From IMG/VR virus record IMGVR_UViG_3300033757_000175: a stretch of 44,219 nt of DNA; one strand, given 5' to 3'. The translations under genes and the position numbers were made by a program. Positions 35,799-40,720 of the stretch are shown here, in pieces. The stretch's first letter is position 1, and the number at the start of each line of letters is the position of its first letter. The stretch comes from a virus. Under the pieces are notes generated by a model that saw only the letters and a program-made list of their open reading frames with translations, searched no databases and had not been told where the DNA came from.

Positions 35799-36077
35799 TT
35801 AGTCTGGCATGTTTTCTTTGATTGATTGTAGTTTCGTCTTACGTAGCTCGTTTTCTGTTGGATTTTGAATATTGGTATGCTGGCACGCCTCAAAAACGGT
35901 TCGAATGACGTTTCGCTCTGACAGTGGCTTTCGTGTTTTCGTTCCATTATCGTCCGCTGTTACCATATTTTCCTTAAATATGGTTTTTGCTTTTTCTAAC
36001 GCTTCTACAACGTTTTCTGCTTTAACGCAGAACTGTTGCATCATATCGTTAGATACTGTTATGGCGTATGTATTCAT
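35799..36077 (-). CDS. Hypothetical protein (92 aa)
   Basis: GGAGGATAGTAGCT-ATG start, directly downstream of the pentapeptide gene. Confidence 0.55.
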   Translation of the reverse strand: MNTYAITVSNDMMQQFCVKAENVVEALEKAKTIFKENMVTADDNGTKTRKPLSERNVIRTVFEACQHTNIQNPTENELRKTKLQSIKENMPD

Positions 36078-36092
36078 AGCTACTATCCTCCG

Positions 36093-36857
36093 TCATGACA
36101 AACGTGGAGCGTCTTTGCGATGTATTTGACATGCAAATGGCAATAGAGCTGCACGAATCGTGGCATACTCGCTGTCATCGCAGTTGAGGGAACACAGATG
36201 ATATGCTAGCTGAACAGCTATACGCCTGTCAACTGTAACATTTGTGCTTCCGCACCACAGTGGCCAACAGGTAAAATCTATATCTGTTCCTCTTAGATCA
36301 GCCATACGCAAAAACGCCCCTTGCAAATTTGCTCCTTGTAAATTCGCATTTTGCAAATTTGCTCTGAGCAAAAATGCCCCTTGTAAATTGGCTTCCTGCA
36401 AAAACGCTCCTTGCAAATTCGTATCTTGTAAATTCGCATCTTGCAAATTTGCTCTGAGTAAAAACGCAGCTTGCAAATTAGCTTCATGCAAATTAGCTTC
36501 ATGCAATTTCGCCTCTTGCAATTTCGCATTTTGCAAATTGGCTTCATGCAGGTCTATTCCAAGCAAAAATGCATTTCGCAAATTTGCTCCTTGCAAATTA
36601 GCATTTTGCAAATTCGCCCAGTCCAAAATCGCGCTTTGCAAATTCGCATTGCACAAATTTGCTCCTTGCAAATTAGCATCTTTCAAATTCACATTGCACA
36701 AATTTGCTCCTTGCAAATTAGCATCTTTCAAATTCACATTTTGCAAATCAGCATCGTGCAAATTCACATTCTGCAAATCAGCACAGGTTCCGCCGCATTC
36801 ACCAGCAATCCATTTTGCATGAGCGTCTAGAATGTCTTTAATTTCTGTAGTATTCAT
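36093..36857 (-). CDS. Pentapeptide-repeat protein (254 aa; Qnr/MfpA-like right-handed quadrilateral beta-helix, DNA-mimic type)
   Basis: About 30 consecutive A(N/D)LxG/A(N/D)Lxx pentapeptides (ADLQNVNLHDADLQNVNLKDANLQGANL...). N-terminus ILDAHAKWIAGECGG and C-terminus ...CWPLWCGS... are typical of the family. Start trimmed to ATG 36857, downstream of the terminator at 36879-36909. Confidence 0.85.
   Translation of the reverse strand: MNTTEIKDILDAHAKWIAGECGGTCADLQNVNLHDADLQNVNLKDANLQGANLCNVNLKDANLQGANLCNANLQSAILDWANLQNANLQGANLRNAFLLGIDLHEANLQNAKLQEAKLHEANLHEANLQAAFLLRANLQDANLQDTNLQGAFLQEANLQGAFLLRANLQNANLQGANLQGAFLRMADLRGTDIDFTCWPLWCGSTNVTVDRRIAVQLAYHLCSLNCDDSEYATIRAALLPFACQIHRKDAPRLS
36300..36790. 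repeat. 15-nt-periodic coding repeat (pentapeptide units) including a perfect 45-nt tandem duplication (36651-36695 = 36696-36740)
   Basis: TTGCAAAT recurs about a dozen times exactly and about as often with one mismatch, phased with the pentapeptide units. All stop-free frames on both strands appear as spurious ORFs. Confidence 0.9.
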
Positions 36858-36878: not shown

Positions 36879-36909
36879 AAAAAAAAAGGGAATTGCTTCG
36901 GCAATTCCC
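36879..36909 (-). terminator. Intrinsic terminator closing the GC-rich cassette
   Basis: Minus strand GGGAATTGC-cgaa-GCAATTCCC followed by T9. Confidence 0.85.
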
Positions 36910-36939
36910 TCCATTGACTCTGCTGTGAAATGTTCCGTA

Positions 36940-37119
36940 TCAACCACCACGATACGCGGCTGGGCAGATCGGTGAGTGTCCACGGTCACAACGTAGCGTG
37001 TCGATCAAATGCTGTTCCCTGCATGCACCACAGCATTTTTTTCCGGTGCAGGCACACAGCACATCACTGTTGTTCATGACATCATTGATACTCAGATTCG
37101 GTTTAATGATTTTTTCCAT
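36940..37119 (-). CDS. Cys-rich small protein (59 aa), fourth ORF of the GC-rich cassette
   Basis: GGAG lies 9 nt upstream of ATG 37119. Translation MEKIIKPNLSINDVMNNSDVLCACTGKKCCGACREQHLIDTLRCDRGHSPICPAAYRGG, with 8 Cys in the C-terminal 40 residues. Confidence 0.5.
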   Translation of the reverse strand: MEKIIKPNLSINDVMNNSDVLCACTGKKCCGACREQHLIDTLRCDRGHSPICPAAYRGG

Positions 37120-37149
37120 GTTACGCATCTCCACTCGACATCGTCATTT

Positions 37150-37335
37150 TTACGTCCCATCAACATGGTCATGTGCAATGCCGACATTGACATATCGCAT
37201 TCGTCGCACGGGCGTTATCATTGTCCGGCAAATTTTTTCAGCCCAACCATGTGATTCCGTCCATGCCACCGTGTGCCACCGTGTGATCGGTCGGTCCGTG
37301 GCCTCATCGTAGATTTGTTCATCGATCCTGTACAT
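37150..37335 (-). CDS. Small protein (61 aa), third ORF of the GC-rich cassette
   Basis: GGGGAG lies 7 nt upstream of ATG 37335. Translation MYRIDEQIYDEATDRPITRWHTVAWTESHGWAEKICRTMITPVRRMRYVNVGIAHDHVDGT. Confidence 0.5.
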   Translation of the reverse strand: MYRIDEQIYDEATDRPITRWHTVAWTESHGWAEKICRTMITPVRRMRYVNVGIAHDHVDGT

Positions 37336-37357
37336 TGCGAGACTCCCCATGATATGA

Positions 37358-37387
37358 GGATGGGCATTGCGTCGGCAATGCCCATCC
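37358..37387 (-). promoter_or_regulatory. 13-bp GC-rich hairpin between cassette ORF2 and ORF3
   Basis: GGATGGGCATTGC-(4-nt loop)-GCAATGCCCATCC. No U tract follows, so it could be an attenuator, a stability element or a processing site. Confidence 0.6.
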
Positions 37388-37409
37388 CGGTGTGAGGGGT
37401 GATGGCGGA

Positions 37410-37718
37410 TCAGTCAGGGATGATCCGGGTCGTGGTGCTGCTGCGACGTCCCGCACGCAGCTGTGTGAATGCGGACTCATGCATCTCGGCCAGCAGATTC
37501 TCGACGTAGCTCATTCGCCCATCGGACATGGGGGCCAGCGGATACTCGGTTTTGTCCCGGCCACGTACCACGCGGCCATTGAGCACCCGGAGCAGACAAT
37601 GGTAACCCCGCTCGATGCGGTCGATGGCGTCCAGTACCAACCGCTTCGTGTTTTCGTTGCCGTCCGTGGTCAGGGGGATTCGGTACCCCCTCGATTTTCG
37701 CTGTTTCTGTTCGGACAT
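37410..37718 (-). CDS. Small basic protein (102 aa), second ORF of the GC-rich cassette
   Basis: GGAG lies 8 nt upstream of ATG 37718. Codons are G/C-ending. Translation MSEQKQRKSRGYRIPLTTDGNENTKRLVLDAIDRIERGYHCLLRVLNGRVVRGRDKTEYPLAPMSDGRMSYVENLLAEMHESAFTQLRAGRRSSTTTRIIPD. The 170-aa track version runs across the promoter and was trimmed. Confidence 0.6.
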   Translation of the reverse strand: MSEQKQRKSRGYRIPLTTDGNENTKRLVLDAIDRIERGYHCLLRVLNGRVVRGRDKTEYPLAPMSDGRMSYVENLLAEMHESAFTQLRAGRRSSTTTRIIPD

Positions 37719-37769
37719 GAGACGATCTCCAAAAAAAAACGTTTCTGTTGATCTCGTACAGCTATATAG

Positions 37770-37798
37770 AGGATACCATATGCCCCCCACCCTGTCAA
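37770..37798 (-). promoter_or_regulatory. Sigma70-type promoter candidate inside the GC-rich cassette
   Basis: Minus strand TTGACA (37798-37793), a 17-nt spacer, then TATCCT (37775-37770). An A-tract element lies immediately upstream. Confidence 0.5.
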
Positions 37799-37837
37799 GC
37801 GAAAATCCAAGATTTTTGGCCCCTCGATAAAATTTTG

Positions 37838-38173
37838 TTATCGGACCATACATGGGAACCGTCCGGCCATATATAATGGGATAGCCACCTCCTCGTCGAT
37901 GCAGCCGTAGACACCGTAGCACCTATATATAGTACATTCCTGATACAGTTCGTTCACTATACACACTATATATTGTGGATCGACATTGTCCAGTTTATGC
38001 TTTCCCCCAAGATTCCAGACATACTCGGTCCTGTTTGTCGTCAATCCCTGACCCCAGGAAAACCCGACATTCTGGCTCCAAAACGTACGCGATATTCCGG
38101 ACATGGCATATCCGGTAGGGCGATGGCAATTCGGAGATTCTGGACCCACAGAGTAGGGTATAATACTGGACAT
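37838..38173 (-). CDS. Hypothetical protein (111 aa), first ORF of the GC-rich cassette
   Basis: GGAG lies 5 nt upstream of ATG 38173. Translation MSSIIPYSVGPESPNCHRPTGYAMSGISRTFWSQNVGFSWGQGLTTNRTEYVWNLGGKHKLDNVDPQYIVCIVNELYQECTIYRCYGVYGCIDEEVAIPLYMAGRFPCMVR. I cannot exclude that this stretch is a structured RNA instead. Confidence 0.4.
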   Translation of the reverse strand: MSSIIPYSVGPESPNCHRPTGYAMSGISRTFWSQNVGFSWGQGLTTNRTEYVWNLGGKHKLDNVDPQYIVCIVNELYQECTIYRCYGVYGCIDEEVAIPLYMAGRFPCMVR

Positions 38174-38291
38174 TGCATCTCCAGATTGTCCGACTAAGAC
38201 GACGTCGAGATGGTGCACTGTGGCTTGTGGACCGTACGGACCGGGGTAGGTGGGACGGATAGAAAAAGAAGGACGGACTGGTAGTCAGCTC

Positions 38292-38311
38292 TAAATTTTA
38301 TATAAAATTTA
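38292..38311. promoter_or_regulatory. Perfect 20-bp A/T palindrome at the upstream edge of the GC-rich cassette (operator or promoter candidate)
   Basis: TAAATTTTATATAAAATTTA reads identically on both strands. Confidence 0.5.
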
Positions 38312-38338
38312 AAAACTTTAGGTGGGGGGAAATTTAAA

Positions 38339-38388
38339 TAAATTAAGCTCCTATAACGACTTACATATCATCATAGGAGCTTAATTTA
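38339..38388 (-). terminator. Intrinsic terminator after the SLOG gene
   Basis: 16-bp stem (38339-38354 pairs with 38373-38388) with an 18-nt loop, followed on the minus strand by TTTAAATTT. Confidence 0.65.
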
Positions 38389-38401
38389 GCACAGTTACAA
38401 G

Positions 38402-38749
38402 TTAAATTGTGAATACAAATAATTTTAATTTGGTTTGCACTGATAGATTTATCATATGTTCCGTACCTCTGCTCTGTCCATCCCAGAGAATTACAGCAGC
38501 ATCAGCGTATAATGCCATTTCCCTATTTCTAATATAGCAGGCCGCTTTTCCAAATTTATCCCAGTTTGGTGGGAATTCTTTTACTGGAATGCCATTATTC
38601 TCGGCCCATTGTTTGCCTAGCTGATCCATTCCCATTTCAGTACCACAAACTACCTCTGTTATTTTCAAATCACTAGAAAGACTCTCCAATACAGAGGAAA
38701 GTTTGTTATAATCAACAATAGTCCTAGAACATGCAATAATAGTTTTCAT
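38402..38749 (-). CDS. SLOG-superfamily protein of the DUF2493/YspA type (115 aa)
   Basis: VVCGTEMGMDQLGKQWAENNGIPVKEFPPNWDKFGKAACYIRNREMALYADAAVILWDGQSRGTEHMI follows the G-x-G-x-D...A..W...ADW..yGkaAg..RN..M...DG.S.GT layout recalled for DUF2493. Confidence 0.6.
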   Translation of the reverse strand: MKTIIACSRTIVDYNKLSSVLESLSSDLKITEVVCGTEMGMDQLGKQWAENNGIPVKEFPPNWDKFGKAACYIRNREMALYADAAVILWDGQSRGTEHMINLSVQTKLKLFVFTI

Positions 38750-38857
38750 TTAACCTCCAGCACTAGTTTAATTGTGTTTGATATAAGTTTGTAATTAATT
38801 AGCACAGGACTCACAAAACAAAAATAATTAAAGCACTATACAATAACAATACTATTA

Positions 38858-40720
38858 TCACTTAATTTCTGCATAATTATTTCCAGTCTTACAATCTGCA
38901 ATAAATGGAATAGATAGATTAATAGCATTCTCCATACAATTTTTCAGTGTCCTCACATCCTGTTGCGGATTACAGGACTCACACACAATCTCATCATGGA
39001 CGATCATAACAATCTTCAAACCATGCACTCTACACAGGCAAGCTGCGGCCTTAATCTGATCTGCTGAAAATCCCTGAATCTTGAAATTGAAAGCCTGACG
39101 CACGCATCTAGCTTTAGATGGAGCTTTTCCAGGAGAATAATTGGGTAGAATCTTATACTGAGGAAACCGTCGTCTTCTGCCGGTTAGTGTACAGACAAAT
39201 CCATTGGACTGTAGTTCGTCTCTAGTTTCCTCCATAGCTTCCTTAACTCTGGGATACAATTCAAAGAATTTACTAATCCATTCTTTAGCAGCCTCGACTG
39301 GCACTCCCATATTATGGGAAATACCATATTCGCTACTGCCATATACAATTGGGAAGTTCACACCATTTTTTGCGCGATAGCGTTCTAGTTTGTATTTCTT
39401 GGCTGCTGCTTCGTGTTCCTCGGTTTCATTGGTCAATTCCGTTTCTGTCAGTCCAAGATTGAAGATTCCATTTGCTGTAACAAAATGCAAATCCAGATTT
39501 TTCTTAAAAGCATCAATGATAGAAGGATCACCACTGACCTCGCCAAGAACACGCAGCTCCTGACCAGAAAAATCACCACCTACCAGTGAATATCCAGGAG
39601 CAGCTTTGATAACTTCGCGAAAATTCATATCAGGAAATTGCTTAGAAATATTTGGAAGTTGTTGCAGATTTGGATTTCTGAAATTAGTTCTACCAGTTTT
39701 AACAATTCCTACAGAAGGTCGTACTCTACCATCTATATCAATCATATCATAAGTAGGAATGATATAAGCATCATAGAGCTTACGAATTTTCTTATAATCG
39801 ATAAGAAGATCAATAAAAGGATGTTTTCCTTTCAATTGTGCAAGTGTATTTTTATCCAAACTTTGTGTATACTTACCTGTTTTTGGATTCTTAGTTTTTG
39901 GAACAACTATGTCAAATTCTTCCTTAAGAAGATTAACCAATTGTGGAGTAGATTTAAAATTGACAGGAAGAGTGCGCTCACTGCTACCATCAAATAGAAG
40001 CTGAATAGTAGGATACTTGTGAGCCATAGCAAGCATCCTATCTTCAAGCTCAATCAACTTGTTACTAGCTCTGAGTTTCAATGCATCCAGCTTTTGAACA
40101 TCAATTTCTACTCCATTAATCTCGATATCAGCCTGCACAAACACAAAAGGCATTTCAATAGTATAAAACAGATAAGACAAGTCCTGTTCGGTCAATTCTG
40201 TCTCGTACAAATCATGTAGATACCAAGCCCAAACAGCATCATTATGGCAATATCTATACCATTCCTTACTGTGGTATCCATAACTACTGGCTTTCTCCCA
40301 GCCCTGTACTTCTCCAATAGGAATACGCAAATCCTGTACTGCCAAAACCTTCAAGCCGTGGGTTTCCCTATTTTCATCCAACAAATAACTGGCAATGTAA
40401 GTACAGAAAATACGTTCTGGATAATGCCCACAAAATTTCCTACAGCATTTTATATCAAACTTAGCATTGTGTGCAATAAACAATCCGTTATTAAAAATAA
40501 CGCCCAAAAATTTTAAAATGGATTGAGTTTCTATATTTTCCCATAAATCAATGTAGCAGGCCTTCTTACCATTACAAAAAGAAATTCCCACTGGTTCCAT
40601 TTTCATGTAACTAAGGCCAGTAGTTTCCCAGTCAAAGCTAAACTGGTGCCCTGCTCCATCAAACCAATTTTTTACCTGTTCCAAGGTGGTAAGAATAGTT
40701 CTCTGCTCTGGCACCATCAT
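38858..40720 (-). CDS. Family A DNA polymerase with 3'-5' exonuclease domain (T7-like)
   Basis: Exo motifs FDWETTGL, HNAKFDIK and YCHNDAVWAWYL. Pol motifs GGDFSGQELRVL (A), RYRAKNGVNFPIVYG (B) and MIVHDEIV (C). Confidence 0.9.
   Translation of the reverse strand: MMVPEQRTILTTLEQVKNWFDGAGHQFSFDWETTGLSYMKMEPVGISFCNGKKACYIDLWENIETQSILKFLGVIFNNGLFIAHNAKFDIKCCRKFCGHYPERIFCTYIASYLLDENRETHGLKVLAVQDLRIPIGEVQGWEKASSYGYHSKEWYRYCHNDAVWAWYLHDLYETELTEQDLSYLFYTIEMPFVFVQADIEINGVEIDVQKLDALKLRASNKLIELEDRMLAMAHKYPTIQLLFDGSSERTLPVNFKSTPQLVNLLKEEFDIVVPKTKNPKTGKYTQSLDKNTLAQLKGKHPFIDLLIDYKKIRKLYDAYIIPTYDMIDIDGRVRPSVGIVKTGRTNFRNPNLQQLPNISKQFPDMNFREVIKAAPGYSLVGGDFSGQELRVLGEVSGDPSIIDAFKKNLDLHFVTANGIFNLGLTETELTNETEEHEAAAKKYKLERYRAKNGVNFPIVYGSSEYGISHNMGVPVEAAKEWISKFFELYPRVKEAMEETRDELQSNGFVCTLTGRRRRFPQYKILPNYSPGKAPSKARCVRQAFNFKIQGFSADQIKAAACLCRVHGLKIVMIVHDEIVCESCNPQQDVRTLKNCMENAINLSIPFIADCKTGNNYAEIK

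Follow-up and report, generated by a model that had tools for sequence, protein, structure and literature searches.

The morons of lambdoid and HK97-type phages, on which Juhala et al. and Hendrix et al. are said to have reported in 2000, are insertions made up of a promoter, a gene and a terminator and have a deviant base composition. Iteron-type origins and operator arrays include the lambda ori, the P1 oriR and the omega-protein heptad arrays of pSM19035, and small early or middle phage regulators that lack a family assignment are exemplified by the T4 AsiA/MotA-type and T7 Gp2-type proteins of host takeover. In addition, PeSL stem-loop cassettes mediate the shuffling of ORFans in T4-type phages (PMC2839356, PMC4122927). 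Here we compare these systems with a GC-rich segment of about 1.5 kb (36879-38388) in the viral record IMGVR_UViG_3300033757_000175, whose whole stretch of 44,219 bp with 39.7% guanine plus cytosine (GC) is referred to as the window. The window is a complete phage genome, since two of its relatives (L002 and L006; all related contigs are given L numbers) run across its ends. An initial annotation had taken the segment for a recently imported moron with four open reading frames (ORFs), here named A to D along the minus strand. Although the sequence features on which it relied are real, this reading turned out to be largely wrong, and the segment is rather probably a composite of three layers of different age instead of one imported operon.

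ORF B (37410-37718, minus strand) encodes a basic protein of 102 amino acids with an isoelectric point of 10. It is the only one of the four ORFs with coding evidence, and the comparison of sequences identifies it as a real, conserved and old gene, the first one behind the promoter. A word-indexed protein search returned matches from the same species only, and a HMMER search of 1.84 billion representatives revealed eight further clusters with 30-50% identity and E-values of 1e-18 to 5e-5. The representatives of these eight clusters align with ORF B over its full length (alignment A1), and the family is marked by the motifs DGNxNTK, LNG(K/R), EYPLxPMS and QLxAGxR and by a C-terminal PD. Among close relatives, the ratio of non-synonymous to synonymous substitution rates (dN/dS) lies between 0.17 and 0.55. 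The AlphaFold2 model that was obtained with alignment A1 (predicted local distance difference test, pLDDT, 84) consists of an unstructured N-terminus rich in lysine and arginine, a helix of 28 residues, a beta-hairpin and a helix of 24 residues; the Lys/Arg-rich tail is present in most homologues. The family is undescribed: profile searches of Pfam, PHROGs, NCBIfam, PADLOC and the PDB sequences gave no match, and a Foldseek search of the model against PDB and BFVD found no neighbour with an E-value below 0.7.

Not only the sequence of ORF B is conserved but also its place. The gene and its promoter are found at the same position in L010, L012, L013, L041 and L043, where ORFs A, C and D were not found. 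The ORF B homologue is preceded in L010 and L012 by a gene end that codes for the C-terminus of the same DNA polymerase (60% protein identity in L010), and in L010 the gene downstream of it is a homologue of a 92-amino-acid gene of the window (35799-36077), which makes ORF B a syntenic gene of the clade. The SLOG gene that lies upstream of ORF B is present in the window species and missing from L010. The loci of the relatives had been searched for with an alignment of the polymerase C-terminus, and Pfam searches with the genes adjoining the ORF B homologues in them returned nothing useful. Taken together, the initial claim that the four ORFs form one operon acquired together does not hold for distant relatives, which keep ORF B and the promoter in synteny without A, C and D.

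With regard to base composition, the rise between 36.9 and 38.3 kb is indeed the largest in the genome, and the GC peak, both terminators, the promoter, a 13-bp hairpin, a 20-bp palindrome and four intact frames were all recovered where the initial annotation had placed them. The jump to above 50% GC is uneven, however, as 61-63% is reached only at about 37350-37700, which is essentially ORF B, and the remaining segment has 40-56%. Likewise, the G/C-ending codons that had been ascribed to all four frames proved to be a trait of ORF B alone. In detail, the GC content at the first, second and third codon position (GC1, GC2, GC3) is 0.60, 0.47 and 0.75 in ORF B, compared with the flat profiles of ORF A (0.46, 0.45, 0.53), ORF C (0.55, 0.45, 0.53) and ORF D (0.48 at each position), so that GC3 of the latter three lies at 0.48-0.53. 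All four frames are preceded by a GGAG-type Shine-Dalgarno sequence at a distance of 5-9 nt. Training a codon-usage log-odds model on the genes of the phage itself did not help to decide on ORFs A, C and D, since the score of ORF B, a real gene, is negative as well.

The high GC of ORF B seems to be a trait of the family and not a mark of recent transfer, because GC3 is raised in the homologues of nearly all AT-rich relatives when compared with the neighbouring genes. The values are 0.75 versus 0.32 in the window, 0.66 versus 0.31 in L013, 0.53 versus 0.33-0.38 in L011 and 0.48 versus 0.29-0.37 in L012; the difference is marginal in L010 (0.51 versus 0.47), and two possible distant homologues show 0.70 versus 0.40 (L020) and 0.60 versus 0.39 (L018). 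In addition, no donor was found in the phage, plasmid, GTDB-genome or IMG/VR collections. Searches of phages and plasmids with the cassette or with ORF B (blastn, tblastn) gave no match, and a peptide scan with ORF B of GTDB genomes and IMG/VR detected no relative. The proposed recent transfer from a high-GC donor thus finds no support on either count.

ORF A (111 amino acids, 37838-38173, minus strand) is an open frame inside a conserved control region. The tblastx similarity of this region to L014 is equal in all frames, including those that contain stops, and in the pairwise alignment with L014 the frame is broken by indels of 2, 11, 5 and 4 nt, with the region of the start codon missing altogether from L014. 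No equivalent exists in the sequences of L010, L012 and L013 or in the gene tables of L041 and L043. Among close relatives ORF A shows no synonymous versus two to three non-synonymous differences, while the synonymous divergence (pS) of the adjoining ORF B is 0.08-0.12. Because the frame is broken in L014, all frames are conserved alike and no synonymous excess exists, ORF A is probably not a gene, and the best reading is that of an open frame that arose by chance within regulatory DNA. The initial annotation had counted it as a gene, and had itself named frames not conserved in homologues as speaking against its view.

The DNA around this frame (about 38340-37760) is a non-coding control region which is kept by this uncultured phage clade downstream of the DNA polymerase gene. 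This became apparent from an alignment of seven lineages (the window, L010, L012, L013, L014, L041 and L043), all of which arrange the elements alike, beginning with a terminator and an AT-rich tract and continuing with a CACCTA box, short lineage-specific boxes, a GTCC(G/T/C)ATAA box and the promoter. In L010, L012, L013, L041 and L043, the 0.6-1.3 kb that precede the ORF B homologue contain no credible gene. The first element in the window is a terminator-like hairpin on the minus strand with arms of 21 nt at 38339-38359 and 38368-38388 that are 90% complementary, and folding of 38275-38424 on this strand gives a z-score of -7.6. It follows the SLOG/YAcAr gene (Pfam PF10686, E-value 1e-11), and terminators lie at the same position in L041, L043 and L012, suggesting that it ends the polymerase-SLOG transcription unit and marks the upstream edge of the control region. 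The AT-rich tract (38285-38338, about 70-80% A+T) contains a perfect A/T palindrome of 20 bp at 38292-38311 and is found at the same position in all seven aligned lineages.

Further towards ORF B, the CCACCTAC box (38246-38253, minus strand) forms the end of a pyrimidine-rich run. Its core is nearly invariant, reading CACCTA in the window, L014, L041, L012, L010 and L013 and CACCTG in L043. It is followed by the conserved boxes ACTGGACA and GATCCACAATAT (37965-37997, minus strand), which overlap a promoter-like site, TGGACA-16-TATAGT (37992-37965), and share with L014 an exact match of 16 nt, GTCGATCCACAATATA. The last box, GGTCCGATAAC (37837-37847, minus strand), is a candidate operator situated 38 nt upstream of the CTTGAC at the -35 site. 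It is a single copy in the window genome of 44 kb, where it reaches a position-weight-matrix score of 17.5 versus 12.8 for the next best site. The box has the consensus GGTCC(G/T/C)ATAAC, and its spacing to the promoter is kept at 38-41 nt in five lineages (the window, L010, L012, L013 and L014). The promoter itself is predicted to be of the sigma-70 type, TTGACA-17-TATCCT with a TG extension (37770-37798, minus strand), with a transcription start near 37763 and hence a short leader of about 45 nt up to the ATG of ORF B. It is homologous in L010, L012, L013 and L014 as GCTTGAC(T/A)-N18-TAT(A/C)CT, and related forms occur in L041 and L043; the L014 contig comprises promoter and box and stops before any ORF B.

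In several relatives the box is not single but arrayed, with about 16 copies in L010 and 2-12 copies in L018, L020, L022, L023 and L042. The array of L010 (1103-1404) repeats GGTTATAGGAC, with the variant GATTATCGGTC, at a period of 18 bp and ends in one inverted copy of the box 39 nt upstream of the promoter; judged by its layout, it reads as a textbook iteron or operator array. When the combined pattern of box, spacer and promoter was used as a DNA query, it matched one GTDB genome (Sulfoacidibacillus), which by a rough estimate is chance level (about two expected), and one IMG/VR contig, L046; neither locus has an ORF B homologue, and both hits were therefore discarded. On L046 (870-1340), which appears to be an unrelated viral contig, three palindromes GTCCGATAATCGGAC were observed whose half-site equals the box of the clade. 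One of them precedes a promoter-like site, and the other two are each followed, after about 10-20 nt, by the Shine-Dalgarno sequence of one of several successive small genes, which may be a coincidence or may point to a shared type of regulator.

ORF C (61 amino acids, 37150-37335, minus strand) and ORF D (59 amino acids with seven cysteines, 36940-37119, minus strand) are putative species-specific orphans. The sole homologue cluster of each stems from the same phage species, and no counterpart was seen in any distant relative examined. ORF C is weakly gene-like (GC1 exceeds GC2, and the purine fraction at codon position 1 is 0.65), which ORF D is not; ORF D is not called as a gene in two of the six gene tables of relatives either. 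The AlphaFold2 model of ORF C, with a pLDDT of 54, is uninformative. Neither frame has a promoter of its own. They are flanked by two hairpins that are 86% identical and likewise carry no promoter: a perfect, GC-rich one of 13 bp between ORF B and ORF C (37358-37387, minus strand), which is no canonical terminator as it has no T-run, and its paralogue at 36888-36909. The latter is the only one with a T-run and forms the second terminator, GGGAATTGC-CGAA-GCAATTCCC plus T9 (36879-36912, minus strand). These two are the only copies in the genome, where none would be expected by chance.

The next gene on this strand encodes a pentapeptide-repeat protein (36093-36857; Pfam PF00805, E-value 5e-49). 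ORF C, ORF D and this gene are all absent between ORF B and the homologue of the 92-amino-acid gene in L010, and the three together look like an insertion. Of the initial moron reading, this sub-block is the part that may stand, whereas ORF B and its promoter occupy a conserved position. The start codon of the pentapeptide-repeat gene (36857) follows the terminator after 23 nt, too close for a promoter to fit in between. The segment is therefore not a cleanly autonomous unit, and the pentapeptide-repeat gene must rely on read-through or on an internal promoter. A promoter and terminators are present, as the initial annotation had said, but the former belongs to the conserved ORF B and the latter abuts the next gene.

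Two observations concern the variability of this part. The loop of the 36.9-kb hairpin (36897-36900) reads CGAA on the minus strand of the window, whereas each of the six close relatives has the reverse complement, TTCG, on an unchanged stem. This looks like an inversion by template switching within a quasipalindrome, and the minus-strand RNA of the relatives would carry a C(UUCG)G tetraloop at this place. The pentapeptide-repeat gene is the zone of the genome with the highest density of single-nucleotide polymorphisms (SNPs) and indels, and its product has 254 amino acids in the window, 277 in L006 and 234 in L001. Such differences in length among near-identical genomes indicate a rapid variation of the repeat number.

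More generally, 4-32 SNPs per 300 nt separate the window from its near-identical relatives at 36.3-38.3 kb, and up to 7 further downstream. Within the segment the count is 4-15 per 300 nt, while the neighbouring polymerase/SLOG and structural-gene regions have 0-2. The segment is deviant in composition, as the initial annotation had said, and lies in a variable part of the genome, which agrees with the moron reading. The synonymous divergence given above for ORF B contrasts with 0-0.003 in the polymerase/SLOG genes (38402-40720) of these otherwise near-identical genomes. This island of allelic diversity is sharp, with its upstream edge near 38242. The differences in ORF B are substitutions of all kinds arranged as a mosaic, and L001 switches between two haplotypes within 200 nt. 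Mosaic alleles beside near-identical flanks point to recombination among diverged alleles rather than to a mutator mechanism. Hypermutation of the type caused by diversity-generating retroelements was considered and rejected, as transitions and transversions of all kinds occur; nor do the gene tables of the relatives, which extend over part of the genome only, list a reverse-transcriptase domain in their precomputed Pfam annotation.

The relatives show some additional features near their ORF B homologues. A conserved, GC-rich leader of about 120-150 nt without ORFs directly follows the promoter in L012 (about 1400-1560) and L041 (about 600-790). It carries repeated GGATACCGA motifs, has no Rfam match and may be regarded as a candidate structured leader RNA; the window does not have it. 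A transfer RNA (tRNA) gene comes shortly after the ORF B homologue in L041 (1309-1377) and, with two small genes between, in L011 (1357-1429). Furthermore, inverted repeats of 25-31 nt with a complementarity of 84-92% enclose individual small cistrons, one of which is the ORF B homologue of L012 (1582-1608/1902-1928 and 1928-1958/2328-2358 in L012, 883-907/1168-1192 in L013 and 2139-2163/2327-2351 in L014). Their 5' arms have the motif TAGGCGATTGTGCCTA in common, followed by a Shine-Dalgarno sequence and ATG, and their outer parts differ between the phages and still pair. These repeats, of which none were seen in the window, may function as processing stems or mark the ends of cassettes.

The phage as a whole has no close cultured relative. 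Its DNA polymerase does not exceed 30% identity to the polymerase of any deposited phage, none of 50,697 phage records gave a nucleotide match to 14.2 kb of the window, and eight of ten large proteins of the structural arm are without a PHROG match, with one of the other two matching only a family of unknown function.

How these pieces may fit together can be outlined as follows. The three layers are the control region, in which ORF A is probably an accidental open frame, ORF B as the conserved first gene behind the promoter, and the C-D block, which would have entered by recombination at the hairpins, in analogy to PeSL cassettes. A DNA-binding protein specific to the clade might occupy the GGTCCGATAAC site, centred near -80, and switch the ORF B promoter during infection. 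The best candidate for this protein would be ORF B itself, suggested by the constant pairing of the gene with the box and by its basic tail; it might act as an autoregulator or as a nucleic-acid-binding early or middle protein. Transcripts would run through ORF B, pass the hairpin that lacks a T-run and stop in part at the 36.9-kb terminator, and read-through would supply the pentapeptide-repeat gene.

Several points weigh against this outline. Three of the nine ORF B homologues are not basic, and ORF B has no recognisable DNA-binding fold of the helix-turn-helix (HTH) or ribbon-helix-helix type and no structural neighbour in the Foldseek searches. The use of the promoter, the role of the box as an operator and DNA binding by ORF B are what we infer from sequence, and the insertion of C and D at hairpins is drawn from analogy and not from a demonstrated event. 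The box is single in the window, and the arrays of the relatives may serve another function, for example as an origin. Finally, the frames and Shine-Dalgarno sequences of ORFs A, C and D are intact in six of six close relatives, although at 97% similarity this is uninformative either way, and the dN/dS values of ORFs C and D (0.3-0.9) rest on one to four changes only and neither prove nor exclude coding.

A bolder version of the composite reading, which we regard as possible but doubtful, would make ORF B the founding member of an undescribed family of small, basic, box-recognising proteins and have it control the adjacent promoter and, via the arrays in relatives, the initiation of replication. 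The GC3-rich coding and the allelic divergence of about 10% at synonymous sites would then reflect selection, by an arms race or an embedded nucleic-acid signal, and not drift, and the inverted repeats of 25-31 nt in relatives would perhaps represent a distinct and likewise undescribed means by which phage genes are organised or mobilised.

The main rival for the region upstream of ORF B is that about 38340-37800 constitutes a replication origin, with an AT-rich unwinding element and initiator-binding repeats that are activated by the adjacent promoter, so that the boxes would be iterons and not an operator. The neighbourhood of the polymerase, helicase and primase module agrees with this, as do the palindrome-containing AT-rich tract, the roughly 16 boxes of L010 at their regular period together with the 2-12 in the five other relatives, the block-wise conservation in seven lineages and a single DnaA-box-like GATCCACAAT. 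The window, however, contains one box where several repeats would be expected, no initiator was identified, the GC skew follows the direction of transcription only, and the fixed distance between box and promoter in five lineages fits promoter control better. An origin built on DnaA boxes in particular was rejected, as TTATCCACA-like sites are not concentrated at the locus. We therefore hold the origin to be unlikely, though it deserves to be kept in mind. The initial proposal, an autonomous set of four genes newly acquired from a donor of higher GC and comprising a regulator with effectors, a toxin/antitoxin-like set or counter-defence functions, is less probable still. It can appeal to the highest GC of the genome, to the promoter and terminators bracketing the segment, to codon usage unlike that of the phage's own genes in all four ORFs, to the location in a diversity hot zone and to the absence of C, D and the pentapeptide-repeat gene from L010. 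For ORFs A and B it is already contradicted by the broken frame of the one and the synteny of the other with its promoter in distant relatives, and the nearly family-wide high GC3, four collections without a donor and a terminator that leaves the next gene no room for a promoter oppose it further. That the products belong to no named family, as the initial annotation had stated, was confirmed, with no match of ORFs A-D in Pfam, NCBIfam, PHROG or PADLOC at E-values up to 1; by the same token, no toxin/antitoxin or defence family was matched.

If the GC-rich segment were a long structured non-coding RNA with incidental ORFs, this would account for the lack of coding signatures in ORFs A, C and D. 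Islands of high GC in AT-rich phages do often turn out to be RNA genes, and L012 and L041 do have long, ORF-poor leaders with a conserved GC-rich stretch. Nevertheless, the GC peak coincides with the demonstrably coding ORF B, the long leader is replaced by about 45 nt in the window, and folding z-scores in sliding windows along both strands are unremarkable (-2 to +1.4) outside the three hairpins. Rfam 15 gave no match in the window at the gathering threshold and only chance-level ones at an E-value threshold, a scan for tRNA and transfer-messenger RNA found none there, and among nine relatives nothing credible was found by Rfam except the tRNAs of L011 and L041. An RNA of this kind is accordingly very improbable. 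Virtually no weight remains for a chimeric assembly of phage DNA and a fragment of a GC-rich organism, which the abrupt change in composition might suggest and which the initial annotation had wished to see excluded. It is refuted by the presence of both junctions in six independent assemblies (L001-L006, about 97% identity) that stem from different samples and from different pipelines (JGI and Logan), and more distant relatives show the same architecture too.

Thus, under the composite reading, the segment represents a phage regulatory region of the ordinary kind that includes the gene of an undescribed small protein, and not a newly acquired system of four genes. For genome scans this calls for caution: a promoter and terminators do not necessarily make a GC-rich phage island a moron, and in this case the comparison with relatives resolved it into control DNA, an old core gene and a pair of orphans. 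Both the ORF B family and the module of box and promoter are undescribed, and nothing suggests a new class of mechanism. What can be reused is a family of small proteins comprising nine clusters in 1.8 billion representatives and a conserved cis-regulatory module (box, fixed spacer and promoter) for an uncultured phage clade without a cultured relative. If it is true that ORF B binds the box, the pair would amount to a compact orthogonal set of regulator and operator. With no mechanism of a new class in sight, the practical impact is modest.

Compared with the described systems, the segment resembles morons in its deviant GC, in the promoter upstream and the terminator downstream and in its small genes of unknown function, and C, D and the pentapeptide-repeat gene separate two genes that are neighbours in L010. 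It differs from them in that ORF B, the gene richest in GC, is conserved and syntenic in the clade together with its promoter, ORF A is probably not a gene, C and D are promoterless and no donor exists in the collections searched. As in PeSL cassettes, lineage-specific orphan ORFs of a hypervariable region are enclosed by a pair of near-identical stem-loops, one of which is a terminator; PeSL elements are repeats that combine a strong promoter with a stem-loop terminator, however, whereas the stem-loops of the window are promoterless and are present in two copies only, and no mini-circle or recombination product was seen. With iteron-type origins and operator arrays the relatives share a box of 9-11 bp which is repeated 4-16 times with a period of 18-27 bp, and their arrays adjoin an AT-rich tract and a promoter near replication genes, upstream of the gene for a small basic protein. 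In this case the differences are the single box of the window, an ORF B without a ribbon-helix-helix, HTH or Rep fold and DnaA boxes that are not enriched. Finally, although ORF B has no sequence or fold similarity to any of the T4 AsiA/MotA-type and T7 Gp2-type regulators, it is like them a mostly helical protein of about 100 amino acids, and its gene comes first behind a promoter of the early/replication arm that is strong and conserved.

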